NCBI GenBank assembly: GCA_963823665.1
Contig: CAWGMQ010000005.1
Location: forward strand, 64,001 to 128,000
Length of the DNA stretch: 64,000 nt
Origin: an uncultured Planctomycetota bacterium
Lineage (GTDB): Bacteria; Planctomycetota; Planctomycetia; Isosphaerales; Isosphaeraceae
Reading direction: 5' to 3'
Shown: piece after piece, positions 1 to 41,576 of the stretch
How positions within the stretch are numbered: position 1 is the stretch's first letter
How the letters are laid out: the number at the start of each line of letters is the position of its first letter
Position numbers and translations under genes: made by a program
Notes under the pieces: generated by a model
What the model saw: the letters and a program-made list of their open reading frames with translations, nothing else
Told to the model about the DNA's origin: nothing
Database searches by the model: none

Positions 1-2679
1 TCGACGCAGATCGCTCGATCCTGATCGTGCTGGCCGTCGACAACAGCCAGATTGCCGTTCATCCCGGCGCCCTTCTGCGGAACCAGTTTGGACTGACGCC
101 TGCCAGGATCGAGCGCGATCTCATCCGGGACGTGTTCATTCCGTTCGCAGAGAAGGAGCAGTACCCCGAGGGGCTTGCCGCGCTCATTTCGGGTCTTCTC
201 AACCAGACGAACGACGCGATTGCTGCTCGCGATCATCTGACGGCGCGTGCGCCAGTGAAGATCACGGCGTCTGGTTCGAGCAAAAGCAAGGCGCAGACCA
301 AAACGGCGGGCGGCACACGGAGTGTGCCTGCTGCGACGCGCGAGCCGCAGGCGCCGGTTGTGCAGCGAGAGCTTCCTGACAAAGCGGTGACTGAGCAACC
401 TGTTCTGCCGGTGCGCTCGTCGTCGAATTGGATGACGGGCCTGACCGTCGTGGTTCCAATGGTGGGGACCGTATTGCTCTTGATCGTTGGTGCGCTCTGG
501 TGGGGATATCGCCGCACGCGATCGCGCGTGGCCGGGCGGATCAAGGATGTGAAATCGAAGGCGGTCGATGTGATGGATCACCTCGACGCGCTCAAGGAAC
601 GGATCAAGCTGCTGCCGGCCTCGCCCGAATTTCGTGAGCCCATGACCGGCGAGACGCAGGCGCTTTATCAATCGGCCAAGCAATCGAGCGACAACATCTG
701 GGACGGGTGGCTTCAGATCATGGAGGTGCTGGACAAGGCAGAGAAGCTCGCGGCGAAGTCGGGCTCGTTATTCTCCCAGGCGGCGCTCACCGAAGCGGAG
801 AACCTCATCAAACAGAAGGGATCGTTTCAGGAGATCGAGAACCAGGCGGAGCAGATCGGCAAGTCGGTCGACCGGCTGGAACGCGCGCACCCGGAAGCGC
901 ACGCCGTGCTCGATGCGGCGAGCGCCGCGCGACCCAAGCTCCTGGCGGGACTGGAAGCCCTCACCAAGCTTGACCTGCCCACCAAGCCGTATCAGGCCGA
1001 CGTCGAGGCGCAAGTCGCCGCGGAGGCGAAAGCCGGCTCGCAGATGGTTGCCGACCCGATGGGGATTCGGAAGGTGCTGGAAGAGCTGAAGGCGAAGTCG
1101 GAAAGTCTGCTCGCCCGGATCGAGCGAGTGGCGGCGCTCTGCGGGGATGTCAGGCAAGTGAAGGTCACGATCGAGACGATACGGAAACAGGTGGCGGCGC
1201 ATCGGGCTCAGGGGCTCAAGCTGCTCGAGAGTGGGGGCAACCCCGACCCGGCGCTTTCGCAGGGCGAAGCGGCGCAGGCTGAAGTGATCGCTGCCCTTCG
1301 CAACGGTGATGCCGGTCTTGGGGCTACCGCCTTGAGCACGGCCCAAGCGCGCGTTCAGGATGCCCAGACGACGATCGAACAGGTGCAAAAGGCCCGGTCT
1401 TTCTGCGATCGCGACCCTTCAGCCCGGCTGCGCGAAACCGAGCGCCTGCGCACGGCGATGTCTCAGGCCGAGTCTTATCAGGCCGATCTGGAGCGTGACT
1501 TTGCGCCCTCGTCGTGGAGCGCGGTGGGGCGAAATCTCGAGCAGGCACAGGGCCTTCTGGCGACGTTCGATCGCCAGGTGCAAGATGCTGCGCGGGCGGC
1601 CTCGAGCAGCAGCCAGGAGTATCTGAAGGGTGCGCGGACTCTCGAAGAGCTGGCCCGGCAGCAACAGATCGTGCTTCGACTCATGTCGGGGCTGGGCGAG
1701 CAGCTCAATTCGCTGGTCGCGGTGCGCAACGAGTCACGATCGTTGATCGAGCAGCTCGCAGCGAGCGAGCGAGCGGCCGAGCTTTTGATCCGCCAGAACG
1801 AGGCGGTGGTCGGACCACTGGCCGGTGAGAGCCTGGCGAAAGCGCAGCAAGTGAGGCAGGAGATCCTGCTGCGATCGGGCAGGCCCCGGCCCGACTGGCC
1901 CGCTTTGCGGCAGAGCCTCGCCGAGGCTATTGAGAATATGTCGATTGCCCAGTCGCAGGCCGAGGAGGACATCAAGAGCTTCGAGCAGTTGAACGGTGAA
2001 TTCGAAGGGGCCCGCCGGACGGCCAGCCGGGTGTACGCTCTGCTTTCCAGTCACCAGGAAGACCGGCTCGCGGCGAACCAGCATTATCAGGCTGCGGCTG
2101 ATTCGCTCGATCGGATAGCCATTTCGATGCAGGAGCCGCGGGGTATCGCGGCCTCGCTGCTGGCGCAGGTGCGAGACGCCGCGGCTGATCTCGCGCGGTC
2201 GGAGGAGCTGGCGCGCGAAGATATCCGTCTGGCTGCGCAAGCTCAGTCCGAGATCAGCGACGCTCTGCAGGCCATTCGTCAAGCTCAGGGCTACGCCGGC
2301 ATGGGGATCGGCGCCGACACCGGCGGAGCCCAATCTCAGCTCATGCAGGCCGAGCAGCTTCTGCAATCGCAGAACTACGAGCAGTCAATTCAATATGCCG
2401 GGGCCGCCACGCAGCTCGCGCGACAGGTGTACTACGCCGCGATGCAGCAAGCGATGTTGCAACAAGCCGCGGAAATGGCCGAGCAACGGAGGCGGGCTGC
2501 CCGGGCGGCCGCGCCCGCGTGGGGATGGAATCAGCTTCGGGACCGCCGCGGCGACCGCAGCAGCGGCCACGATCCTTGAGAATGCCGTGACCGCCCCACC
2601 GCCGGACCCGGGGCCTGAGCCGGAACCGGCGACAGCCGGCGGCTCCTGGGGTGGCGAAACGGCCCAGGGAAGCTGGTGA
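1..2679 (+). CDS. Membrane-anchored long coiled-coil protein (possible N-terminal TPM-like domain), 5'-truncated by window; frameshift near 2525
   Basis: ORF 27..2579 has one TM helix (GLTVVVPMVGTVLLLIVGALWWGY) then ~650 aa of A/Q/E-rich helix; the Gly-rich tail GISFGTAAA...GGSWGGETAQGSW lies in ORF 2395..2679. Confidence 0.6.
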
Positions 2680-2833
2680 AGAAACACGGGAATTTCGGTG
2701 GCTTGACCGAGGGCGCATCCTGGTCCATAATGAAGAATGTGTTGCTGGAAGCTTCAGGTTGGATGTTCTCACCCGGCCCAAGCTAGCCACCACTGTTTAC
2801 CCACCTTCTCAATCGCGTGATCGGGGTTTTGTC

Positions 2834-3377
2834 GTGAAGGGGCGGCGCATCGAACAATCACCGGGGTCGCGCATCCTGTTCGTCGGGATCGTGATTCTGA
2901 GCGTGATTCATGTGCCGCTGCCGCAGGCGGACTATCACAACGTTCGCCATCACGACGGTGCGGGCGAGGTCTGCGATCACCACGATCACTCTGCTGCGCT
3001 GGCACCCTTCGGCCGAATCGGACGCCGACGTGACGCTGCTCCACTGGCACTGGTTCCTGCCGCTGCTAGAAGGACCCGATTCGCATCAGCGTTCCGATGA
3101 CGACCACCACCGACCGGGCTCCGGCCCCGCGATTCACGCGCACGTCGGTGACGGTCTGGTACCGGAAGACTGGCAAAGCGAGCCGCTCTTTGGGACGGCG
3201 GGATCATGGCAGTTGATCGATCAACTCGCGTTCGATGGCTCGATCGCGGGTGCGGCACTTTCTGCCGACGCTTGCGATGTAAGCGATGCGCCATTGGGAG
3301 TTCTCTCGGGTCAAGCCTCCCCCGTGGAGTTAGTGTGCGCGCAGCGGACCGCTCTATTACAGCGATGGAACTGCTGA
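2834..3377 (+). CDS. His-rich putative exported/membrane protein upstream of metal efflux genes; frameshift near 2990
   Basis: Hydrophobic N-terminus ILFVGIVILSVIHVPLP, then HNVRHHDG..CDHHDH in one frame, continuing LLRWHP..LHWHWFLP..DDDHHRP..IHAH in ORF 2910..3377. Confidence 0.55.
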
Positions 3378-8530: not shown

Positions 8531-9954
8531 TTACTTCGCACCGGAGACGATCGCCGGTTTGCGGGTGTGCCAGTCGGTCAGCGATTCGTAGGCGGCCGCT
8601 GCGCGGAACAGGGTTGCTTCATCCCACGGACGTCCGACGAGCTGAAGGCCGACCGGCAGGCCCTCCGGCGTAAACCCGCAGGGGATCGATACCGCCGGCT
8701 GACCGGTCAGATTGAACGGGAGCGTCAGGTCGAGAAACGCGCGCACGAGCGGAACTTCCTGGCCGCCGAGGGTCGCGGTGGTCGCGCCGATTGACGGAGC
8801 CGCGATCGGGCTCGTCGGTGTGACCAGCACGTCAAACGACCGCCAGAGCACCGGTACGCTGCGATTGTGTTGCGGCGCACCTGCTGCCCCGCCAGGTACT
8901 GCGGGGCGGTGAGAAAAAGGCCCGCCTGGAGCAGCGGCCGCACCTCGTCAGAAAACTCGGCCGCCCTGGTGCGAATCAGCTCCTCATGAGCTGCGGAGGC
9001 CTCGCTGAAGATGATCGCGCGATGTGCGCCGACAACCGGGTTCAGCGGTGGGAATCGCACGTCGACGAGCGTCGCTCCCGCCTTTTGCAGAACGCCGAGA
9101 GAGTCCTGGATCGCTGCGGCGACGCCCGGGTCCATTCGGGCAAGGAACTGATCGTGCGGCACGCCGATGCGGATGCGTTTCAGCCCACCATTTAAAGCAT
9201 TCAAATAGCTGGGAACTTCTCCGCGGCGCGTCGCGGTGTCCTTGGGGTCGAGTCCGGCCATCACCGACAGGAGCACCGCGGCGTCTCCGACGTCTCGCGA
9301 CATCGGACCGACAGTGTCCATCGACCATGAAAGCGGAATGCCACCATGGCGGCTGACCCGCCCGTAGGTGACCTTGACGCCGACGACACCACAGAGCGCG
9401 GCCGGCTGCCGATTCGAGCCGCCCGTATCGCCGCCGACGGCGGCAAGCACCATGCCCGAGGCGAGTGCGGCCGCATTCCCGCCGCTGCTGCCGCCGGGGA
9501 TGCGTGACAGGTTCCAGGGATTGTGGCAATCTCCGTAGAACGGATTGCGGCTGGTGAAACCATAGGCCATTTCGTGCATCGCCGACTTGCCCACGATGAC
9601 GCAGCCTGCGTTTCTGAGCCGCTCTACAACCGTCGCATCCTCGCGCGGGACGAAGTTCGCGAAGACCTTTGTGCCGCCGGTGGTGCGAACTCCCCTGGTC
9701 CAGAAACTGTCCTTGATCGCGGTGGGAACACCAGCGAGCGGCATGCCCGCCCCCTGGCCCGAGGCGACCTTGCGGTCAACCTGTGCGGCCGCAGCGAGCG
9801 CTTCATCTTTCATGACGGTGATGAAGGCGTGCAGGGTCGGGTTCAGCTTGTCGATCCGCTCCAGGGCAGCCTCGGTTACAGCAACCGCGGTCAGCTCACG
9901 GCGGCGCACGGCGTCGGCGACTTTGCGGGCCGTGAGCGTTGTCAGGTCGATCAT
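8531..9954 (-). CDS. Amidase signature family protein (GatA/AtzE-like); frameshift near 8855
   Basis: PLAGVPTAIKD, NPWNLSRIPGGSSGG, GGDTGGSNRQPAALCG; C-terminal PFNLTGQPAVSIPCG..GLPVGLQLVG in ORF 8531..8851. Confidence 0.85.
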
Positions 9955-10160
9955 GACGGCCACTCCTCGACAACGACGCCGCTCTCGGGCTCAACCGAGC
10001 GCCGGTCGCCTGGCGGCATCAGGCGAATTTCGTCGAAAAGTCCGTTCAACGTGGTCGTCAGGGCGTCGATCTCGCCTTGAGCGAGCGAGATTCCGAGCTG
10101 TTCGCTCGCGAAGCGACGAATCGTCTCCGCTTCGAGTATCGGCTTGGCTAAGTCTGGCAT
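9951..10160 (-). CDS. Small amidase partner protein (GatC/AtzG-like)
   Basis: ~69 aa MPDLAKPILEAETIRRFASEQLGISL..VEPESG; its TGA overlaps the amidase ATG (ATGA at 9951-9954). Confidence 0.6.
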   Translation of the reverse strand: MPDLAKPILEAETIRRFASEQLGISLAQGEIDALTTTLNGLFDEIRLMPPGDRRSVEPESGVVVEEWPS

Positions 10161-10355
10161 GGGCATCTCTCGTCGCGATATGTCGGATCTGCTTGGTGTC
10201 AGGTAACCGGCTGAACTGGCTCTCGTCACGGTGACACTTTGCACCAAACGCGCGAGACACACAACAGAAAACCACAATCGAGGTTAGTGGTGGCGTGATC
10301 ACTCTCGGGCTACAATGGCCGCAATGGCTCGTTTTCTGGTAGTCGTCGAACGAAT

Positions 10356-11183
10356 ATGGCCGAAAGCTCATCTCCGACCGACCTGTCTCCCATGCGGGAA
10401 GGGCCAATTCCGGCAATCGATCGGCTGAGCGCATCGCGGCGCCCGCATCAATCGGCCGTGATGCGCCAGAAGTGGCGCGACCTCTTGTTCCTGCACTGGT
10501 CGGTTGACGCCCAGGAACTGCGACGTGTTGTTCCGCCGGAACTCGACTTGGACCTGTTCGAGGGAACGGCCTATGTGGGTCTGGTGTTTTTCACGATGAC
10601 GGGCGTGCGCCCCGTCGGGTTTCCGCCCGTCTGGGGGCTATCCAGCTTTCACGAGACGAACCTCCGAACCTATGTCCGACTAGGTAACCGGGACCCGGGC
10701 GTCTGGTTTTTCAACCTCGAAGCCGCGAACTCCATCGCCGTGCTTCTGGCCCGCACCATCTTTCACTTGCCGTACCATCGTTCGCGGATGTTCATGGAAC
10801 GAGAACGGACGCATCACGAAGACAGCGCGGGCCTCACGACGATCATGTATGGGGGCGTGCGCCAATGGCCAGGACCAATCCCGGCCTCGTACAGCACGCG
10901 AGCGAGCGTTGGCGGACCGACGCGCGTCGCCGGGCCAGGTACGCTCGACCACTTCCTGATCGAGCGCTACATCCTGTACTCCCGGAAGGCCGACAGCGTC
11001 TTTCAGGGCCGTGTTCACCATGAACCCTATCCAATTCAGTCGGCGAGCGTTGACTATATTCACGAGAACCTGCTGAGTAGCTGGAATCTCCATAAATCCG
11101 AAGATGCCCCTTTAACCCATTTCTCCAAAGGTGTCGACGTCGAGGTCTTCCCGCTACGTCCCGTCGCAGGAAGCCTTTACTGA
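10356..11183 (+). CDS. DUF2071 / YqjF family protein
   Basis: MRQKWRDLLFLHW, FHETNLRTYV, PGVWFFNLEA, FLIERY. Confidence 0.85.
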   Translation: MAESSSPTDLSPMREGPIPAIDRLSASRRPHQSAVMRQKWRDLLFLHWSVDAQELRRVVPPELDLDLFEGTAYVGLVFFTMTGVRPVGFPPVWGLSSFHETNLRTYVRLGNRDPGVWFFNLEAANSIAVLLARTIFHLPYHRSRMFMERERTHHEDSAGLTTIMYGGVRQWPGPIPASYSTRASVGGPTRVAGPGTLDHFLIERYILYSRKADSVFQGRVHHEPYPIQSASVDYIHENLLSSWNLHKSEDAPLTHFSKGVDVEVFPLRPVAGSLY

Positions 11184-29686: not shown

Positions 29687-31006
29687 TCAACGACTTGCAA
29701 GCGGCGCACCCAGCACGAGAAACGCCTCGCTCACCGGGCTGGGCACGATCGCCCGGGCCATCTCTCCGATCGGAGCGCGTTTGAGCCGATCGGGAACGAT
29801 CGCGTCCGGCTCGAAGAAGACGCTGCTCGGGTTTCCGCCAAAATCTCCAAGCCTGCCGTCGTGCTGGACGAAGTAATTGTGGTTATTATCGGCCTGCGTG
29901 ACGAGCCCCCCCGGGGAAATGAAAACCGATTGGCTCGGTACCGAATTGACCATCTCGCCGGAATTGATCCACATGAGGCCTGTGCGTATGAGGTCTGTGC
30001 GTAGCTGCGCCCGCCTGCGCCGATGCGGGGCGGCGGCGGCCGGACTGATGGTCTGATTCCGCGGGACCGTGACGGTCACTCCCTCGCCCGTCACGACAGC
30101 CAGGAGCTGCGGGCCCGTCGTGGTCTCGCGCTCCGGAATTTCCACGCGGAGCTCGCGGTCGGAAACCACACGGAAACCGGCAGCTCGCGAGCCGCCGGCT
30201 TGGCCCAGGAACAGTACTGCATTCGTGCGGGCAAACCCCTTGCCGGTAAGCGTGATGATCTCGCCGGATCCGCCCGCGCGCGGCGAGAACCCTCGAATGA
30301 GCGGTGGAACTGCCCGCGCTTCCGACAGGTCCGGTAGTAGCGGAGCCACATACCGGAATGGTCCGACCCCCGGGCACGCCGTGATCTCGGGAACCCTGAC
30401 GAGCGTGACCGCGGCCCGCTGGTTCGGCCTTGCAACACCAGGGCCGAGCTGCGCGGCCGGCTCGTAAAAGACGATGCCGCCGGGATTGCGGAATTCCAGC
30501 AGCGTTCCGCCGCTCTTCACGAAATGCATGGCCGCGTTCGTGCTGTGCACCACGACGCCCCCTTTCTCGATCAGGGCGACGCTCTCGGCGCTCGACACGA
30601 CACCACCGCTCTGCACGTGATAAAACGTTTCGCCGGCCTCGGCGACGTTGGCCCCTTGTACCGACGACCGGACGGTCTGCACGGTCGCGGGCATCGCCAC
30701 CGCCGCGCCACTCTCGGTGAAGACGGCGAGGGTCGCAGCCGCGCCCGGTCGATAGCACTCCGGCACGACCACTTCGATCTCCTCGTCGGAGATAACCTTG
30801 AAGCGGGCGCGCCTCAGCGTGCGGTCGATCGCGAAAACAACACGCCCCGTGGTGGCCAGCCCCTTGCCCTTCAACTGCACCGGAATACCAGCCGGTCCCG
30901 ATTCGGGCGTCATCGAGAAAATCTCCGGTCCCGCCGACGCGACCGGCGGAAGAACCATGCCGATCACCACAACGAGCGTCCAGGGCAACCGTTGTCGTAT
31001 GCACAT
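29687..31006 (-). CDS. Secreted protein with two IPT/TIG domains
   Basis: Signal peptide; PEIFSMTPESGPAG..LKGKGL..FKVISDEEIEVVVP and PLIRGFSPRAGGSG..LTGKGF..FRVVSDRELRVEIP; AGGAGG RBS. Confidence 0.75.
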   Translation of the reverse strand: MCIRQRLPWTLVVVIGMVLPPVASAGPEIFSMTPESGPAGIPVQLKGKGLATTGRVVFAIDRTLRRARFKVISDEEIEVVVPECYRPGAAATLAVFTESGAAVAMPATVQTVRSSVQGANVAEAGETFYHVQSGGVVSSAESVALIEKGGVVVHSTNAAMHFVKSGGTLLEFRNPGGIVFYEPAAQLGPGVARPNQRAAVTLVRVPEITACPGVGPFRYVAPLLPDLSEARAVPPLIRGFSPRAGGSGEIITLTGKGFARTNAVLFLGQAGGSRAAGFRVVSDRELRVEIPERETTTGPQLLAVVTGEGVTVTVPRNQTISPAAAAPHRRRRAQLRTDLIRTGLMWINSGEMVNSVPSQSVFISPGGLVTQADNNHNYFVQHDGRLGDFGGNPSSVFFEPDAIVPDRLKRAPIGEMARAIVPSPVSEAFLVLGAPLASR

Positions 31007-31028: not shown

Positions 31029-32606
31029 TCAGCGGCCGTTGTGCGCCAGCCGCCCCGAACCCGATCGTCGGCTCGACTCGGACAAAAGCTTGCGCACCTG
31101 GTTGCTCAAACCGGCGTCGATCGGCTCGACCGCGGCCAGCAGCGTGCGCAACTGCGGGCCCGATCGGTCGTGCTCCTTCGCTTCCTGGACGATCCCCTGA
31201 GCCAGTGCGTAGGCCAGATCAGCCGGCTTGTCCCAGGTTGTAACGGTGGCCAACTGGCGGGCATTGCTTCGGGTAATGACAAAGAGCGGCGCCCCCTGAT
31301 CGGGCGCGGCATATGGCGAGACGCCTAGCCGCCGCGAAAGCGCCGGCAGCTCGTTGATCGGCAGCGCGATCACTACATAGGAGCTTGCCAGAGCGTCGAG
31401 CGGCTCTGACCGGACGAGGCCGCGGCCGGCTACGGTGCGCTCCCACTCACGCAGAACATCCGAAGTTTCCGCGACCTTGTGCAAGATCAACAAGATCGGC
31501 AGCTTCGCGCGGTTCGCGGCGGCAAATGCCCGCTCGGCGGCATCGAGCTCGGTCTCGGGCCCGCTCAAGGGCTGACCGAGGATGTCTGCGAACACTCGGT
31601 GATAAACGTCCTTCAGCATCGGCAGCGGCTCTTCGGCCAGCAGCCTGTGAATCTGCACGAGCGTCGAACGACTCCCGCGCTGTTCCAGGCTCTCGCAGGC
31701 TTCACGATGGCCAACGGCAACCTGGACGGCGTTGCCCCGGGCTTCGCGATCGAGCTGCACCGCCCAGCGCGCCTCCGCCAGCAGTTCGTCCGCGGTCGCC
31801 GGGCCGGTCAATCCGTGAATGACCCGCCCGTCCGGGGTGCAGAAATAGCTCGCCACGTTCCCGCCGTTCTTTTGCAGATTGCCAAACTGATTGACGACCT
31901 CAAAACTGCCAACCTGCTGGTGTGCCGAAACGAAGTGCGCGGCGAAATATCGTGCCACGTTGGGGTCTGACAGGGCGCCCGCCCTGTATGCACTCGCGTT
32001 GTTTCACGTGAATCCGGGATCTTCGAAGTTACCCGATACGTGAATCAAGAAAACGAGCTTTCCTTCGCGACTGGCTTCGCCGGCGGCCTCCGCGGGTGAT
32101 TTGGCCCAGGTGAGCGCGGTGTCGAGCGAACGGTTGGCGGAGCAAACTTTCGCGGCGCCATTGCACGATTCTGGTTCCGCAAGCGTGAGGTCGGCCAGCG
32201 CAAACCACGGCTTCTCCGGGAGCACGAATGGTGCAGCCGTTGCAACCGCGCCTGGCGAAAGAGCAAACTGATCGACCGGCGGCGACTTCTCAAAGCGAGG
32301 TCCAGCGATCTGTTCCTTTTCGACCTGGGTCTCTGAACCCGGCAGACGGCCGGCTTTCGCGATCGGCACCGCCGCGTGCTCAGGCGGTGTGCCCACGTCC
32401 TCAGCCGGTGCGGTTTTCGAGGCGACCGGTTGCCCGCTGTCTGCCAGCGCGCGCTTCGGACCATGCGTGCACCAGGTGTACGCCGCCAGGATGAGAGCGA
32501 TTGACGCACAAAACCCCACGCCCGCGGCATAACCCACGAGCATTCCACGAAGCCAGCCCTGTGACAGTCTCGGCCCCATCGCCGGCAAGTTCCCACGAAC
32601 ACTCAT
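31029..32606 (-). CDS. Thioredoxin-fold membrane-anchored protein, candidate selenoprotein (in-frame TGA at 32004-32006)
   Basis: ORFs 32004..32606 and 31029..31958 share a frame; read-through gives GKLVFLIHVSGNFEDPGFT-U-NNASAYRAGALSDPNVARYFAAHFV..FCTPDGRVIH. Confidence 0.7.
31970..31987 (-). promoter_or_regulatory. Candidate bacterial SECIS hairpin
   Basis: mRNA ACAGGGC-GGGC-GCCCUGU: perfect 7-bp stem with a G-starting loop, beginning 16 nt after the UGA. Confidence 0.6.
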
Positions 32607-32687: not shown

Positions 32688-33849
32688 TCAGATCGTCGCG
32701 CTGGCACCGGCCTGCACTGCCGCTTTCACTTTCTCGATGAACGCCGGCCAGCGTGGGTCCGATTCCAAGCTCATGAGCTCGATGTGGCTGTGCCGAACGG
32801 GCAACCACGCCAGGAAGAACTCACGCTCGACGAGCGCCTGTTCCAGCGCGGCGAAGGCCAGGTCATTTTCTCCCAGGGCGGCATGAAGATGAGACAGGAA
32901 ATACGGACGTGTGGGGGCGGGGATCGTGCGCTCGGCCAGCTCGCGTTGAATCTGCCGCGCTTGGCCTACATCCCCGGAGAGCGCCAGCGCCTGACCCAGT
33001 GTGGATAAGAACATGGGCAACCGTCCGGAAAGCTCAACGGCCCGGTGCAATTCCCCGAACGCAGCCTCGCGATCTCCCAGGAACCAGCATGCCCGGCCAA
33101 GCTGCTGGTGACTGACGGCAAAATTCGGGTCGAGTTCCAGAGAGCGGCGCAGCGGCGGGAGCGCCTCGGCGAACGATTTCAGGGAGTTAAACGACATGCC
33201 GAGGTATGCGTGGGCTGCTTTGGAGAGCGGGTCGCCTTCCACGGCACGTCGATTCTGGGCAATGGATTCCTGGTCACGTCCCCTATGGATCAGAAGCCAC
33301 CCATACCAGTAGCGGGCCGGAGTGTAGTTCGAATTCAATTCCAGGGCCTTCAGCAAGTGCCGTTCGGACCCGTACCAGTCCCAGTCGCACCAGCCAAGCA
33401 CGACGCCGAGTGAACAGTGGGCCTCGGCGGAATTGTCGTCCAAAGCTGATGTCATATACCCGGCAAACGTTGGGATGAGCGAGCTGCCGGGACAAGCGCA
33501 CGTCACTCACAAATAACTGAAAGCGCCTCGAACTCTCGGCGACGCCGCGCGGCAGAAATTTGAGCGCCACCGGATGACCGAGCTTCAAGTCATCGGCGCG
33601 ATAGACCTCTCCCATGCCGCCCCGGCCGGCGAGGGACACGATGCGATAGCGGCCGGCGATTTTGGTTCCCGACAGGAACCGGCCATGAGCCGACGAATCC
33701 GGGTCGGAAATCGATGGGGAAGCGCTTGGGTCGGTCGGAGGGTCGTGATCGATCGTTGCCTCCGGCTCCGGCACGAGCAGGCCGCCGCAGGCCGAGCAGA
33801 ACTTGCTGTCAGCGTTGTTTTCGGCGGAGCAGGCGGGGCAGGTTTTCAT
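32688..33849 (-). pseudogene. Ser/Thr kinase-TPR gene remnant with large internal deletion
   Basis: Zn-ribbon CPAC..CSAC and GRGGMGEVYRA..VALKFL..HPNVCRVYDI, joined out of frame near 33447 to TPR repeats (AEAHCSLG..ALELNSNY..LELDPNF). Confidence 0.7.
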
Positions 33850-35704: not shown

Positions 35705-36511
35705 TCAGCGGCTGATCTTCAGGCTCGGCAACGCCCGCTGTAGTTCATTCACTCCGGCGTCGGTGACCTGCGTCGACATGAGATCGAGATCCGACAGTTT
35801 GGTCAGCCCGTGCAGGTGCGCCAGCCCGGCGTCGGTGACGTGAGTGCGAGTGAGGTTAAGTTCCGAGAGATCGGTCAGTCCCTTAAGCTGCTCCAGCCCG
35901 GCATCGGTGATTTGTGTACCACCAAGGCTGAGTGAGGTAAGGTGCTTCAGCGCCGTCAAATGCGCAAGTCCGGCGTCCGTGACCCGATTGCCGTCAAGGA
36001 AAAGAGCCGTGAGGTTTGTGAGGCCCTTCAGATACAACAGCCCAGCATCTCTGACCCGAGTGTCTCGGACGCAAAGGACCGAGAGGTTTGTCAGTCCCGT
36101 AAGCTGCGATAGCCCGGTGTCGCTCAGGGTAGAAGGGATGACAATACAATCCCAGGACGATTGATCGTGAAACAGAGCCTGTAGCCGGGTGAGACGTCCG
36201 ACCTGTGCGATCGCTGCATCGTCGGCTTCGCTTGGGGTGAGAAAGACAAACGTGACGTGATCGAAATAGTCGACCCCGATCAGATCGATGAGCCACCGTG
36301 GCCCCCAGGGTTTTCCCCCCGAAATCGACGCTCCGTTGTTCCACTCCCAGTCATAACCGACGTTGCCGCCGACTTTCTGGATCGCCGCCACCGCCTCACG
36401 CTGAATCCGAGCGTTGCGAACGAGCCAGCCAAGCCAAACACCGATCACAAGCACCAGAACGATCAGCCCCCGCACGCTGAAGCGCAGGAATCTTCGCCAG
36501 GGCCGCCGGAT
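35705..36511 (-). CDS. Leucine-rich repeat protein; natural start apparently replaced by the repeat element
   Basis: RRPWRRFLRFSVRGLIVLVLVIG, then about six L..T.VTDAGL..L..LT.L repeats, ending ELQRALPSLKISR. Confidence 0.8.
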   Translation of the reverse strand: MRRPWRRFLRFSVRGLIVLVLVIGVWLGWLVRNARIQREAVAAIQKVGGNVGYDWEWNNGASISGGKPWGPRWLIDLIGVDYFDHVTFVFLTPSEADDAAIAQVGRLTRLQALFHDQSSWDCIVIPSTLSDTGLSQLTGLTNLSVLCVRDTRVRDAGLLYLKGLTNLTALFLDGNRVTDAGLAHLTALKHLTSLSLGGTQITDAGLEQLKGLTDLSELNLTRTHVTDAGLAHLHGLTKLSDLDLMSTQVTDAGVNELQRALPSLKISR

Positions 36512-36690
36512 GGGAAGCAAGACACCCACCCTTTCGTCGTGAATCAAAGATGAAACCGTTCGGGGAAAGGCGCAGCCGGACACCCATTCTCTCCGAGTGA
36601 TCCATCCACGGCTGCCTCAAACTCGCCAAAACGCTGGGTGTCTTGAAACCTGGTGTCTTGAATCCCAAAACGCTGGGTGTCTTGAATCCC
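36512..36690 (+). repeat. ~140-bp TIR-bounded repeat, copy 1 (right end triplicated)
   Basis: GGGAAGCAAGACACCC..GGACACCC..CAAAACGCTGGGTGTCTTGAA followed by two further GGTGTCTTGAATCCC units. Confidence 0.9.
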
Positions 36691-37345
36691 TGCGCCGTCC
36701 AGCCGATCCGCTCGTCCTTCAACCGATGGACCCGGCCACGGGTCGCGAGGGGCTGCTCCCGCGCCGACTGTTCGAGCTCGCTGTCGGACAGCCCATCGAT
36801 CAGGCCAACTCCGAACAGTGGCGGAGTATTGCGTGCCGTCAACCGGAACCCCACGCGATTGCTCCCCAAGCCGTTCTCCACGTCCCGCTCGGTGGCCATG
36901 GTCTCCCTGTTCAGCTCCTCCATGGTCGGGTTCGGAAAACACTTGCTGGGCCTGTCCTCATATCGAATTCGGGGGCCGACAGTCGTGTGTCGGCGACCGG
37001 AGTGGCTGGTCGAGTCCATCGAGACGATTTTAGCCCTGATCGAGGCTGCCGAGACGCGAGCACTCGTGCGGCATCGAGAACGACCTGCCCCGCGGTTGTC
37101 AGACCGATCAGGCCCGCCAGCGCCCACCGCCAGGCGCGGGACGGTCGCACCGCCGGCGCCCGGACTCGCATCGGCGGCACACCGCGAGAAATCGCGCCCG
37201 TCACAGTCATACCTGAAGCCTTCATCGGGGAAGGAGTCCGCGTCCGACCGGTTCGTTGGCCTCTATTGAGGCATTCGTCCCCGGTCGCGGTTTTGTTCGA
37301 GGGACCTCCGGTGAAATGGGACTCAGGTCGGATCGACCGAATCAA
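36691..37345 (-). pseudogene. Fragment of a di-heme oxidoreductase-like gene
   Basis: RNTPPLFGVGLIDG..RGRVHRLKDERIGWTAQ ends exactly at the repeat; upstream frames are disrupted. Confidence 0.55.
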
Positions 37346-37415
37346 CTCCAGATCAATCGACTTCGGTATCGTCGGACCGAAGCGGACAGTCTCCGCTGCT
37401 ATCGGAACCCCAGCG

Positions 37416-38168
37416 TTACTTTTTTGCCTTGGCCTTCTCCCGCGCGGCGGCCTCGGCGAGGACCGACTCGGGGTCGTCGTTGAACGTGTCGCGGCAGCCG
37501 GTGCAGCAGACCCAGTAGGTCTTGCCCTTGTAGTTGACCTTGATCGTGCCGCGGCCCTCGGTAACGACGCAGAGCGGGTACGACTCGCCCGTGGCGAAGG
37601 CGACTCCCTCGCGGGTGTAGCCGACCTCGCCGAGCCGGGAGAAGGTGTGGAGCTCGGGGTCCTCGGCCTCCAGCAGGACGAGCAGGCGGGTGTCGTGCAG
37701 CGGGGTGATCGAGACCCGGCGCACTCCGCCGGCCGGGGCCTTGGCGTCGGCCGTCAGGACCAGCGGCTTCTTTTCCTCCGCCGCACCGGCGAAGGTGCGG
37801 GACGTGCCGTCGGCGAGGGTCGCCTTGAGGACGAACGTGCCGGGCGCCTTGCCCGCCCGAAGTACGCCCGACTTGAGGTACTTGCCCTTCTTGACCGTTA
37901 TCTCCAGTCCGGCCGAGTCGCTGGTGAGCTTCCAGGCCCAGACCGCCGACTCCATCCACGCCCCGCGCACCCGTCCCCGCTGGACCTGCCCGACCCCGCG
38001 CCACGAGCCCACGAGCGGGGCGTACGCCTTCAGCGCCTCCTGGTCGGCGCGCCGGGCCGGCGCGACCTTGTCCTTGTCGTCGACAGCCCGCACCGTGACC
38101 GCGGCCGCCGCCACGACCCCCAGCGCCGCCAACAGGCCGACGCCCGACGAAACCCTGGCCCTTCGCAT
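37416..38168 (-). CDS. Secreted YHS-domain protein
   Basis: Signal peptide; C-terminal CVVTEGRGTIKVNYKGKTYWVCCTGCRDTFNDDPE. Confidence 0.8.
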   Translation of the reverse strand: MRRARVSSGVGLLAALGVVAAAAVTVRAVDDKDKVAPARRADQEALKAYAPLVGSWRGVGQVQRGRVRGAWMESAVWAWKLTSDSAGLEITVKKGKYLKSGVLRAGKAPGTFVLKATLADGTSRTFAGAAEEKKPLVLTADAKAPAGGVRRVSITPLHDTRLLVLLEAEDPELHTFSRLGEVGYTREGVAFATGESYPLCVVTEGRGTIKVNYKGKTYWVCCTGCRDTFNDDPESVLAEAAAREKAKAKK

Positions 38169-38267
38169 CGTGGACTCGCCCCCCTGAAGACTGACCCTCC
38201 CGTCGCCGACCCCGACCCCGACCATTGTAGGATGAAACCCCGCCCGGAAGCCATACTCTGTTTCGAT

Positions 38268-38414
38268 GGGAAGCAAGAAGCAAGACACCCACCCTTTCGT
38301 CGGGAATCAAAGATGAAACCGCGCGGGGAAAGGCGCAGCCGGACACCCATGCTCTCCGAGTGATCCATCCATGGCTGCCTCAAACTCGCCAAAACGCTGG
38401 GTGTCTTGGATCCC
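38268..38414 (+). repeat. ~140-bp TIR-bounded repeat, copy 2
   Basis: GGGAAGCAAGAAGCAAGACACCC..GGGTGTCTTGGATCCC. Confidence 0.9.
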
Positions 38415-38512
38415 TCTTTGATCAATCATCGTCAACAATCAAGAAGTTTGAGACAATGGGTGCTTGGCCTCCGATCAAAGGAAGATGGAGGCGGTGCCGC
38501 CAAGAGGTCGCG

Positions 38513-38956
38513 ATGAAAGTACCCCACTTCCGAATCGCCTCGATCATGGTGGTCGTCGCCATCGTCGCACTCAACCTCGTGGCGATTCGGGCTTTGCTTG
38601 GATTCCGTTCTCTAATGGGTGAATTGTTGATACTGAGTGCCCTGCCGATGGCGAACCTCTTGGCAGTCGGCCTGCTGATTGGTAGACGGCGTCCTGGGAA
38701 CCGTCCATTCCTCCTGGGCTTCGCGCCGTTCGGTGCGATGGCGCTCGCCCTTTACGTCGCCGTGACGACGTCTGTTCCTCGTGAGATTGTGGTATCCTGG
38801 CTGGCGCCGGTGAGCGACTACTTGGTGAGAATGATCGGGGCACATCGACCGTTGCTCTTCATCCGAGCCCTGACCTTCGCCTGTCTGCTCATACTGGTCT
38901 TGCCTCAAGTGATCTTCGCTCTGATCGGTGGCTTCCTATCCCGGAGATTCAAGTGA
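38513..38956 (+). CDS. Small four-TM membrane protein
   Basis: GAGG RBS; MKVPHFRIASIMVVVAIVALNL..FLLGF..LPQVIFALIGG; resembles 60521..61051. Confidence 0.7.
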   Translation: MKVPHFRIASIMVVVAIVALNLVAIRALLGFRSLMGELLILSALPMANLLAVGLLIGRRRPGNRPFLLGFAPFGAMALALYVAVTTSVPREIVVSWLAPVSDYLVRMIGAHRPLLFIRALTFACLLILVLPQVIFALIGGFLSRRFK

Positions 38957-38982
38957 GGAGGCAGACACTCGTCAGTCGCATG

Positions 38983-39122
38983 GGGAAGCAAGACATCCAC
39001 CCTTTCGTCGGGAATCAAAGATGAAACCGTGGGAGGAAAGGCGCAGCGGGACACCCATTCTCGTCGAGTGATCCGTCCATGGCTGCGTCAAACTCGCCAA
39101 AACGCTGCGTGTCTTGAATCCC
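38983..39122 (+). repeat. ~140-bp TIR-bounded repeat, copy 3
   Basis: GGGAAGCAAGACATCC..GCGTGTCTTGAATCCC; most diverged copy. Confidence 0.88.
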
Positions 39123-39337
39123 CATCCCAATGGACAAGGACGTTTCATAGGGTACGCTATTTGTCTATGCCTTCCGATGGCCGCTCCCTCGGTCCGATTC
39201 CTGAGAACAGGCATCCAACGACGACTGACTGGAGGGCGTCGCCGCAAGAAGAACGCGCGAAGTCCGAGATCTGAGGGGAAGATGGTGGATTCAAATACTC
39301 CGGCGCCGGCCGCGAGTATGGCAGGTACGGGATCGAC

Positions 39338-40388
39338 ATGCGAAGACTCAAGGTCGACCTTCAAGACGTGGCGATCGCCTTTGAAGACCACGGTTCCGAG
39401 TTGAGCCACTACCTCGACATGCAGACCGGCCGGGTCGTTTCCGTCGGCGCAAACGACTTCTCGGAGATCGATGAAGACGACGATGTACTCCGGGAAGATG
39501 AGCTCCGAGAAGATGACTACGAAGGGCCCGAACTGCCTAGCGAGCCTGACTGGATTCGAGCCGAACATGCACTTCGCGCGGAAGTCTGCAATGGGCTGGG
39601 CACGCGGTACATTGAAATCCCCGCCGACGACCGTCGCGAAGCCTACCGCGACATGGAAGAGTTTGTTGACACCGTGCAGGACAGTCGCCTCCAGGCTTGG
39701 CTGGCACGCGACATCGTGGGCCGCGGCGCATTTCGCCGGTTCCAAGATAGGCTTTCCGGGGACTTTCACGAGCGACGCCGTTGGTTTGAATTCAAGAATG
39801 CGCGGCTGGAAGCGCGAATACGCGATTGGTTGGCGTCCGAGGAGATCGAGCCAATCGAAGATCCCCGCGATCAGGAGCGGGAAGAACAGCGGAAGGCCCA
39901 GGAGTTGGTCGATATTCGACTCGACCTGGTCGCCGCGGTCTTGGATTTCGTTGGTTCCGTGGCGCGGACTCCCGGGGGTGCTGCGGATCGCGCTCATCGG
40001 GTCCTTGACAACCGATCGGCTAGACCCGAAGGATGCCGACCTTCTCGTCACTGTGGCAGATGACGCCGGCCTTGGCGCGCTCGCCAAGTCTGCCCGTCGC
40101 ATGCAGGGTCGTGCGCAGAGTTCCAACCGCGGAGCCGATGTTTTTCTACTGGATCCGCGCGGACGCTATATCGGGCGCACGTGTCAGTGGAAAGACTGTG
40201 GTCCCGGAATTCGTCAGAGCTGCGACGCCCTCCATTGCGGCCAACGGCACTACCTTCACGATGACCTGGCCGCGGTCACTCTCCCGAGAGAGATCACAGA
40301 TTCCCCAGCCATCGAGCTATGGCCCGGGCTGGTCACCCGCGTGCCGGTTCCACAAGACCTCAAGGCGGGGCTAATCGACAAGTTGTGA
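39338..40388 (+). CDS. UPF0158 domain fused to (or adjacent to) a nucleotidyltransferase-like domain; frameshift near 39975
   Basis: YLDMQTGRV, YRDMEEFV, GRGAFRRFQD, WFEFK; then PGVLRIALIGSL..PKDADLLV and C..W..C..C..HC..HYLHDD. Confidence 0.7.
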
Positions 40389-40439
40389 TCGTCGTCCTCT
40401 CTCTTTTGTCGCTAGCTGATTCGAAAGGTCGTTTCATCC

Positions 40440-40736
40440 ATGAACCAGTCACCTGAACTCACGCCGGCCGAGCAAGTTCATGCTGGCCTTTACCGAGACC
40501 CGTCGCAGCTTTTCAAACGGGCGCTAGGTCGCAAGCTTTCCTTCATCATCCCGTCGCTCGTGCTCATGATTGTCTGGCTTTTCACGCGTGAGCTCCCCTA
40601 CGTCATTCTCGGTTATGGGATCTTGCTTTACGAAGAGGTGCTTGGAATCTTCTTGGCCAAGAGAGGCATTCAGACCACCAATCAAGTCCTCACGAGATAT
40701 CAGCAAAAGGTCCCAAATCAAGCAGACGCTCCCTGA
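40440..40736 (+). CDS. Small two-TM hypothetical protein
   Basis: 98-aa ORF with FIIPSLVLMIVWLF and YVILGYGILLY; ends 33 nt before repeat copy 4. Confidence 0.55.
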   Translation: MNQSPELTPAEQVHAGLYRDPSQLFKRALGRKLSFIIPSLVLMIVWLFTRELPYVILGYGILLYEEVLGIFLAKRGIQTTNQVLTRYQQKVPNQADAP

Positions 40737-40769
40737 CAGGGCGATCCCGATTTCTGCATCTACAACGAG

Positions 40770-40939
40770 GGGAAGCAGGAAGCAAGACACCCATCCGTTC
40801 GTCGGGAATAAAAGATGAAACCGTCCGGGAAAAGCGCATCCGGACACTCATTCTCTCCGAGTGATCCATCCATGGCTGCCTCAAACTCGCCAAAACGCTG
40901 GGTGTCTTGAATCCCAAAACTCTGGGTGTCTTGAAACCC
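40770..40939 (+). repeat. ~140-bp TIR-bounded repeat, copy 4 (both ends partly duplicated)
   Basis: GGGAAGCAGGAAGCAAGACACCC..GGGTGTCTTGAATCCC-AAAACTCT-GGGTGTCTTGAAACCC. Confidence 0.9.
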
Positions 40940-40991
40940 ATCTGACCTATGGATGCTGCAGAAAATTCCCGGCCGGAGTTCAACTGAAAGC

Positions 40992-41576
40992 CTAAGCCAG
41001 TGATAGCTTGAACAACTCTTGCGCCACTGCGTGACGCCCTAGAACAACATGCGTCGCACGCTCGCCCGCGACGTGCTCCGTACAGGTGTATCCGAGCTTG
41101 ACGAGATCAATTTCGCCAAGGAAGCGTTCGCCCGAGCCGAGGAGCACCGGGCATATCGCCAGATTCAGCTCATCGATCAGTCCGGCGCGAAGATACTGCT
41201 GATCGGTGGCGACGCCGCCTCCGATACAAACGTCTTTCCCATTCGCGGCCGCTGTGGCTCTCTCGAGGGCGCGGTGGATTCCATCCGTCATGAAATGGAA
41301 CGTCGTTCCTCCCTGCATCGGGATCGATTCGCGCGGGTAGTGGGTCAGCACGAACACGGGGCTGCGAAACGGCGGCGTCTCTCCCCACCCGCCCTTCCAG
41401 GAGTTGTCAGGCCACGGCCCTCGAACGGGTCCGAGCATGTTTCTGCCGAAGATGTAGGCGCCCACGTTCAGGAACCTCCGAGCGAAGAAGTCATCGTCGA
41501 TCCCGGTCGTTCCTGCGTCCTTGCCGTGAATGGGCTGGAACGTCCACTCCTTGCGTACTTGGTTGAGGTATGGCAA
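40992..41576 (-). pseudogene. Dihydrofolate reductase / RibD C-terminal family protein, probably 5'-truncated
   Basis: GAYIFGRNM, WGETPPF..PVFVLTH, GKDVCIGGG, AGLIDEL, PVLLGSGER; the usual N-terminal S.DG motif is not seen. Confidence 0.65.

Follow-up and report, generated by a model that had tools for sequence, protein, structure and literature searches.

A TGA-interrupted planctomycete gene predicted to encode a membrane-tethered thioredoxin-fold selenoprotein

Does the TGA codon that parts two collinear open reading frames (ORFs) in an uncultured planctomycete end a gene, or does it encode selenocysteine (Sec) within a longer one? The locus lies in a 64,000-nucleotide stretch of contig CAWGMQ010000005.1 (positions 64,001 to 128,000; assembly GCA_963823665.1, family Isosphaeraceae), hereafter the window, in which an initial annotation had proposed a selenoprotein gene at positions 31029-32606. 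We compared it with relatives in the genome holding the window (G000), in a class sample of 301 genomes and in a phylum sample of 251 genomes. The comparison indicates that the internal UGA is almost certainly read as selenocysteine and that the two ORFs form one gene. We favour a wider reading, to which we assign a probability of about two in three: a Sec-recoded gene for a predicted membrane-tethered, exported enzyme, in which a lone selenolate in a thioredoxin (Trx) fold would act on envelope thiols.

The in-frame TGA and its conservation

The gene is on the minus strand, running from 32606 to 31029; no strand had been named before, and the plus-strand frame over 31029-32606 is closed. The ORF list agrees with the arrangement first described, namely two ORFs in a single frame, 32606-32004 (200 residues) and 31958-31029 (309 residues, GTG start), separated by the TGA at 32006-32004 and 15 sense codons. 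Reading through this TGA yields a protein of 525 residues with Sec at position 201 (U201), in the context that the initial annotation had quoted. Its expectation that standard pipelines would split the gene was also correct: the 309-residue 3' half is filed as a protein of its own, and 46 of 46 close database matches begin beyond U201. The closest named relatives come from uncultured Isosphaeraceae (91%) and uncultured Planctomycetota (93%). A promoter scan found no sigma-70 site, and an Rfam search gave no match over the cut-off.

The domain was matched in 51 of the 301 class genomes. Matches with E<1e-14 in this sample also numbered 51, spread across 40 genomes; 50 of them carry one TGA, and the remaining match does not span the site. 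A family set of 45 loci was assembled from the class search (30 loci) and from genome contigs (15 loci); L073, L074 and L076 were dropped from it as duplicates of counted genomes, and L090 has no profile match. The aligned column was found to be TGA in 30/30 class loci and in 45/45 after the contig loci were added. TAA, TAG, TGG and TGY are all absent from this column (0/45), and the reading frame is maintained past the TGA in 45/45 relatives; the stop codons and lost frames in homologues that would have spoken against the proposal were therefore not found. Invariant residues flank the TGA on either side, with N-N-A directly after it and an arginine at U+7 in all 45 loci, and the same genes use TAA, TAG and TGA at their real 3' ends. 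A TGG or TGC in reads had been named as a further possible objection. A 97%-identical contig of a relative, assembled from an Illumina RNA run, spans the Sec codon with all five differences at other positions; it documents the presence of the codon in independent data of a relative and says nothing on expression level.

Homologues thus align across the junction with TGA or, as had been anticipated, with cysteine. Cysteine occupies the Sec column in P0066, which is near the family, in L070, in the S-C-ANS subfamily and in 148 of the best 150 representatives, while serine, threonine and alanine occur in P0056, L053 and L052, respectively.

The hairpin and the selenocysteine machinery

The perfect hairpin ACAGGGC-GGGC-GCCCUGU was located where it had been reported: it starts 16 nt past the TGA, at 31987-31970, and its loop starts 23 nt after the TGA. 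For bacterial selenocysteine insertion sequence (bSECIS) elements, the legend of Fig. 2A in PMC13188914 gives a loop of 3-9 nt, a stem of 4-16 bp, a G within the first two loop positions, a UGA-to-loop distance of 16-37 nt and a minimum free energy of <= -7.5 kcal/mol. The window's hairpin falls within all of these limits as given there (loop 4 nt, stem 7 bp, GG, 23 nt, -12.3 kcal/mol).

Taken alone, the hairpin is weak evidence, hardly beyond chance; the comparative evidence is far beyond chance. Loci were divided by motif into the window's subgroup (17 loci) and a second subgroup (26 loci), L023 and L083 being excluded because other loci have the same 48 nt. In the window's subgroup 96.6% of cells are paired and three of the seven pairs show two-sided changes, eight in total; the second subgroup has 94.0% of cells paired and two-sided changes in three of six pairs, again eight in total, all counts being uncorrected for relatedness. 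In both subgroups, 0/500 shuffles reach the observed value of paired cells, a control that ignores relatedness. The covariation check suggested in the initial annotation therefore gave a positive result. In the second subgroup, the hairpin has a CGUG-type loop and its position is shifted by ~4 nt. A hairpin alignment of nine sequences from the sister C-U subfamily showed no two-sided changes.

The codons of the conserved arginine at U+7 (n=45) are CGT in 25 loci, AGG in 16, AGA in three and CGG in one. CGC is used in none of them and makes up 210 of the 416 arginine codons elsewhere in the same genes. Such rare codons at U+7 are what an RNA constraint would produce, and we infer that the hairpin is under selection. 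The family contains two SECIS registers about 4 nt apart (alignments A3 and A4), each with its own rare arginine codons, AGG/AGA as against CGT. A3 and A4 together suggest that the element was rebuilt within a coding sequence that stayed conserved. Within the C-U subfamily, the Cys version L070 lacks one stem pair and the loop G; its hairpin is decayed, and its genome (G050) still has Sec machinery.

G000 holds selA, selB, selC and selD, all over the cut-off, and its tRNA-Sec has the anticodon TCA, so that a lack of Sec machinery, another objection raised beforehand, does not apply. In the 301-genome sample, 40/40 carriers of the TGA gene have Sec machinery. As a pattern among related genomes, selA is present in 39/40 carriers, compared with 169/301 genomes at E<1e-50 and 155/301 over the cut-off; the 40th carrier, G284 (83% complete), has selB and tRNA-Sec. 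G059 and G195, for which selB and tRNA-Sec were not found over the cut-off, contain only Cys or non-redox paralogues. The proposal of Sec recoding is thus supported by the TGA in 45/45 loci, the covarying hairpin and the machinery in G000 and in 40/40 carriers.

Several further loci relate to selenium use. The selD of G000 (L019) encodes a SelD of the Cys form. G000 also contains a gene of the formate dehydrogenase type (L103, G000:C5:531591-532334), with TGA-His and a hairpin whose loop is GGUCU. On contig G264:C494, a homologue (2667-3308) is situated ~6 kb from selA (9621-10982).

Protein architecture and candidate chemistry

The features of the locus are listed in Table 1. A segment with hydropathy of at least 2.0 is found in 33/45 relatives, in some as an anchor followed by a long linker and in others as an N-terminus resembling a signal peptide. 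In the window protein, residues ~23-43 are likely an uncleaved membrane anchor, as judged from this segment. The initial annotation had called the protein membrane-anchored and extracytoplasmic; the N-terminal hydrophobic segment is indeed present, and the location itself is a prediction from hydropathy.

Table 1. Positions of the features discussed, numbered within the window.
Feature	Position	Strand	Details
Whole gene	31029..32606	minus	525 aa with one internal TGA as predicted Sec; ATG 32606-32604, stop TGA 31031-31029
In-frame TGA	32004..32006	minus	Predicted Sec, U201; where the active-site helix in Trx domain 1 begins
Bacterial SECIS-type hairpin	31970..31987	minus	7-bp stem, 4-nt loop GGGC (31980-31977)
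Hydrophobic segment	32478..32540	minus	~Residues 23-43; hydropathy 2.23 over 15 residues
Linker	32157..32465	minus	Pro/Ala/Glu-rich, ~100 residues; length varies among relatives
Cys148	32165-32163	minus	
Cys155	32142..32144	minus	U-46; candidate distant resolving Cys
Trx-fold domain 1	31725..32129	minus	~Residues 160-294; Thioredoxin_7/DsbH-like; Arg208 at U+7
Trx-fold domain 2	31179..31553	minus	~Residues 352-476; Cys-less
Downstream gene	29687..31006	minus	439 aa; IPT/TIG domains and β-helix-like inserts

The structural model covers residues 150-515, the N-terminal 149 residues being outside it, and shows two thioredoxin folds at a predicted local distance difference test (pLDDT) score of 91. 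The fold matches of domain 1 by VIA include 3f9u (Z 11.0, root-mean-square deviation (rmsd) 2.4, 107 aligned), 3ira (Z 10.8), 2lst (Z 10.2) and AGR3. A profile alignment places U at the first cysteine of the CxxC in PDB 2kuc (E 1.2e-5), and in the predicted model Sec sits at the start of the helix following the central strand of the fold. The alignment, the model and the fold matches all agree with the earlier view that Sec occupies the redox position of a Trx fold. Domain 1 also has a GGN motif ahead of its last strand pair.

A second Trx-like module had been suggested as well, and domain 2 of the model corresponds to it, matching thioredoxin 3d21 by VIA (Z 9.0, rmsd 3.9, 104 residues). The profile comparison of the two domains gives a weak match (E 0.0009, probability 23%, 109 columns), and BLASTP of one against the other gave none; domain 2 is likely a degenerate duplicate of domain 1. 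It was found in 8/301 class genomes, which means that most family members are single-domain proteins.

Searches for known relatives returned little. Foldseek gave no match at E <= 0.001 among PDB and viral structures, only weak thioredoxins, and searches with the window protein on its own against Pfam, NCBIfam and PDB sequences found nothing relevant. In the ESM Atlas, a Cys paralogue drew clusters without names and weak ones of Thioredoxin_7, and P0066 drew no usable match.

With bacterial Trx-fold selenoproteins (NF041383/NF041382 VPGUxxT, NF041199 Trx7/PDZ) the protein has in common the UGA recoding, a G-loop hairpin downstream and Sec at the Trx active site. It differs from the VPGUxxT, Trx7/PDZ and TsoX families in having no hidden Markov model match to them and no UxxC, CxxU or VPGU motif, and it adds a membrane tether and a Cys-less second Trx domain. 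It belongs to the same fold subtype as Thioredoxin_7/Thioredox_DsbH proteins (PF13899, PF03190; 2kuc, 2lst, 3f9u, 3ira, 2ju5 DsbH, AGR2/AGR3), with structural Z of 8-11. In contrast to these, however, the loop ahead of its active residue is longer, that residue is Sec in place of Cys, a second Cys is lacking and an arginine is conserved at +7. The order of an active Trx domain and a Cys-less one recalls the a-b architecture of protein disulfide isomerase (PDI) and ERp44, which are weak fold matches. No sequence relationship to them was found, and this likeness is an analogy, domain 2 looking like an internal duplicate.

The surroundings of Sec are as the initial annotation had stated, with no adjacent Cys partner: 0/45 loci have a cysteine within six residues of U, and CxxC, CxxU and UxxC motifs are absent in 45/45. 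A cysteine is present at U-56..U-38 in 41/45 relatives, and an upstream Cys occurs in 163 of 254 Cys-type relatives. As 92 of these 163 have no further Cys after residue 45, pairing of the upstream Cys with the active site is suggested. The upstream Cys, 38-56 residues before U, may therefore be the partner of Sec.

The favoured reading implies the following sequence of events. SelB bound to the adjacent hairpin would recode the UGA, and the N-terminal helix would tether the protein to the inner membrane, the ~100-residue linker allowing it to sweep the periplasm. Sec201 could then attack a disulfide or sulfenic acid of oxidised cell-envelope protein thiols, resulting in reduction or rearrangement, while the conserved arginine at +7 would likely stabilise the selenolate or bind the substrate. 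The mixed selenenyl-sulfide might be resolved by the distant Cys155 or by an outside thiol; we propose Cys155 for this step only tentatively. The Cys-less domain 2 might bind substrates or partners, as the non-catalytic domains of PDI do. The product of the downstream gene, an IPT/β-helix protein, would act in the same envelope module, probably not as a disulfide substrate. A thiol-disulfide role of this kind appears probable.

Several observations weigh against this reading. Single-sequence folding of the hairpin is not significant (z = -0.07 to -1.97), and equivalent perfect stems, with at least 7 bp and the loop and spacing rules of the U201 hairpin, follow 18 of all 1852 TGA triplets of the window (~1%), that of U201 included. 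The covariation counts carry no correction for relatedness, and both subgroups and structures were derived from the same sequences. The genomes are related to each other, and the association with selA is therefore a pattern that falls short of an independent test. The close relatives L023, L077 and L083 have frameshifts downstream of U, due to either assembly error or decay. The localisation is predicted from hydropathy. With regard to the resolving residue, a Y-F-C-type Cys at U+51..56 in 38/45 relatives is an alternative partner, P0066 keeps the active-site Cys and has no upstream Cys, and L052 and L053 keep the upstream Cys and have no active-site Cys. Cys155 itself is in the low-confidence end of the model, whose first seven residues have pLDDT <50, and its placement is unreliable. 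Finally, the Ser, Thr and Ala versions (P0056, L053, L052) indicate that the fold can persist without redox chemistry.

These last versions also fit the main rival explanation, in which Sec is real and takes no part in thiol-disulfide exchange, its role being instead to scavenge peroxide, sense redox state, bind a metal or hold mixed disulfides. We consider this unlikely, although it agrees with the absence of CxxU and UxxC motifs throughout the family and with the presence of AGR2/AGR3 among the nearest solved relatives; single-Cys proteins of the AGR2 type are thought to hold mixed disulfides. It would also accommodate the GGN motif, which stands where thioredoxins usually have a cis-proline. 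Nevertheless, disulfide isomerase-like proteins have their nucleophilic Cys at the position aligned with U, and the vicinal (C-U, C-x-U) or distant cysteines of sister subfamilies are expected if a resolving thiol matters.

The two other explanations deny Sec altogether, and the conservation of the column is difficult to reconcile with either. If the TGA were a true stop, the locus would be a conserved set of two genes, one for a short anchored protein and one for a 309-residue protein with its own start. A GTG does occur 15 codons downstream, the halves are separate in databases and these genomes often use TGA as a stop. Such a stop, however, would sever one Trx domain between strand and helix, immediately before the invariant N-N-A and the arginine at +7; no ribosome-binding site was seen upstream of the GTG; carriers are found only in genomes with Sec machinery; and neither TAA nor TAG occurs at the column in 45 loci, yet all three stops are used at the true ends. 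We therefore regard a true stop as very improbable. Slightly more improbable still is that the codon is read as Trp or Cys through an altered code or suppression, or that it is a sequencing error. P0045, from another subfamily, has W at the column, and frameshifts exist elsewhere in the genome and in relatives, but the W of this protein record may reflect the gene caller's choice of code. The codon is identical in 45/45 loci and in independent short-read contigs, TGA also terminates this gene and many relatives, and G000 has a tRNA-Sec with a TCA anticodon.

Wider group, neighbouring genes and significance

A profile built from 36 domains has matches in 126 of the 251 genomes sampled from the phylum, with as many as 12 in one genome. 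With E <= 0.001 as the limit, the profile also finds 4977 representatives. One TGA is present in 135 of the 150 phylum matches listed; for L107-L135 (n=29) it is known as present within the match. In 40 hand-picked TGA matches, the TGA always closes the same strand-loop (40/40), and an arginine is at +7 in 38/40. Sec sites of the subfamilies are of the T-U, C-U, C-x-U and Cys types. In the tree, the window's family is a single clade (support 0.91) that includes a Ser version, and Cys and non-redox relatives stand beside it.

G000 itself contains further members. L094 (G000:C4:575205-575435, minus) is a second Sec member, with Cys-Sec-Gly and a hairpin, and split 3' halves of its kind are abundant in the protein database. 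L092 (G000:C3:916927-917313, minus) is a Cys-type paralogue, and 8 kb away L093 (G000:C3:924919-925065, minus) has the same sequence with the frame lost just past the active site, being either a partial duplicate or an assembly error. Tandem pairs or clusters of TGA-containing paralogues were observed at L066 (G034:C128), G503:C14, G488:C18, G518:C4 and G404:C42.

No Pfam or NCBIfam family covers the window protein, with 0 NCBIfam families up to E 10. It matches neither PF13899 nor PF03190, PF13899 being matched weakly by 12/36 and 20/39 relatives; distant paralogues match NF041383 weakly (best E 1e-4). Neither a family with this motif nor one resembling selenoprotein N is named in Table 1 of a 2026 catalogue of 119 families (PMC13188914). 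The available sections on deep-Sep (PMC12013277) and BSepDB (PMC13326102) make no mention of Planctomycetes, BSepDB being described there as gathering previously reported families. Planctomycete selenoprotein candidates, including one 'hypothetical' and two 'thiol-disulfide isomerase-like thioredoxins', are listed without sequences in the available part of PMC4807772, and one of them may belong to this group. A literature search, with subscription journals outside its scope, found no description of the family. The window's family is thus part of a phylum-wide Sec/Cys thioredoxin group that is absent by name from Table 1 of the catalogue, NCBIfam and Pfam.

The initial annotation also saw a loose likeness to the active site of selenoprotein N, which holds in one respect. 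Selenoprotein N is described as a membrane-anchored protein of the endoplasmic reticulum with an SCUG motif and an EF-hand (PMC8584023), and its human residues U462, G463, R466 and R469, the last disease-mutated, are reported in the consulted parts of PMC8639696 and PMC3541580. Both proteins are membrane-anchored and non-cytosolic, the window protein by prediction, and both have an arginine at Sec+7 (the U462/R469 spacing), a single residue and weak evidence. The SCUG motif, on the other hand, is absent: the window protein has T-U-N, Ser instead of Arg at +4 and no EF-hand match in Pfam. Cys-Sec does occur in sister subfamilies (C-U-G in L094). SELENON is not named among the best 150, 120 and 120 profile matches; these are filled with bacterial Cys-type relatives and half proteins, and its absence from them is not evidence against kinship. 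The matches listed from the PDB profile, Foldseek and VIA comparisons likewise include no SELENON entry. A thesis reportedly describes a Poribacteria homologue of selenoprotein N. The available text of PMC7016017 and PMC7539508 names no bacterial homologue. Kinship with selenoprotein N is a lead, the arginine at +7 being the only shared feature behind it.

The 439-residue gene begins 22 nt beyond the stop of the Sec gene and has the ribosome-binding site GAGGAGG; the two are likely co-transcribed, and the 439-residue protein is likely exported. It has a Pfam TIG match, its model matches 3hrp (Z 12.9) and its inserts resemble bactofilin or autotransporter helices. This gene adjoins the Sec gene in 11 loci and is rare, occurring in 7/301 genomes, six of them with it beside a two-domain Sec gene; it is absent within the 3.5 kb flank of the more distant two-domain relatives L079 and L082. 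The idea that the IPT protein is a disulfide substrate was rejected: its two cysteines are Tyr and Ser in most relatives and, being unconserved, probably do not serve in this way. No conserved neighbours were found upstream of the Sec gene. Directly upstream in the window (32688-33849, minus), a zinc-ribbon/kinase fragment overlaps a TPR ORF that is in another frame, as would be seen if a Ser/Thr kinase-TPR gene had been broken or frameshifted. At ~36400-41000, an intergenic repeat gives several ORF translations near-identical stretches at about 36600, 38300, 39000 and 40900, possibly an element like a miniature inverted-repeat transposable element (MITE) or a repetitive extragenic palindrome (REP).

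A still broader proposal is that a phylum-wide superfamily of exported selenoenzymes, marked by a Gly-loop, Sec and an arginine at +7 and present in up to ~10 copies per genome, forms the bacterial root from which animal selenoprotein N derives. The window's branch would then combine a lone Sec resolved by a Cys 46 residues away, a Cys-less second Trx domain and a dedicated IPT/β-helix partner. We regard this as doubtful; if true, it would allow the chemistry of selenoprotein N to be studied in a simple bacterial model, and if the kinship holds, small soluble members could stand in for a human myopathy protein of poorly understood chemistry.

Sec recoding and Trx-fold selenoproteins were known already, and the translation mechanism is ordinary. 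New are the scale and the design, which combines a lone Sec with a membrane tether, a second domain free of cysteine and a partner gene that is conserved. An active site with a single Sec, and possibly with a resolving Cys at a distance, can be tested directly. Half of the sampled Planctomycetota genomes hold a member of the group, yet gene callers cut these genes in two. Soil Isosphaeraceae are aerobes. Aerobic bacteria rarely keep selenoproteins, according to the relevant passage of a 2026 review (PMC13188914), and the group would therefore revise both this rarity in aerobes and the selenium demand of planctomycetes.

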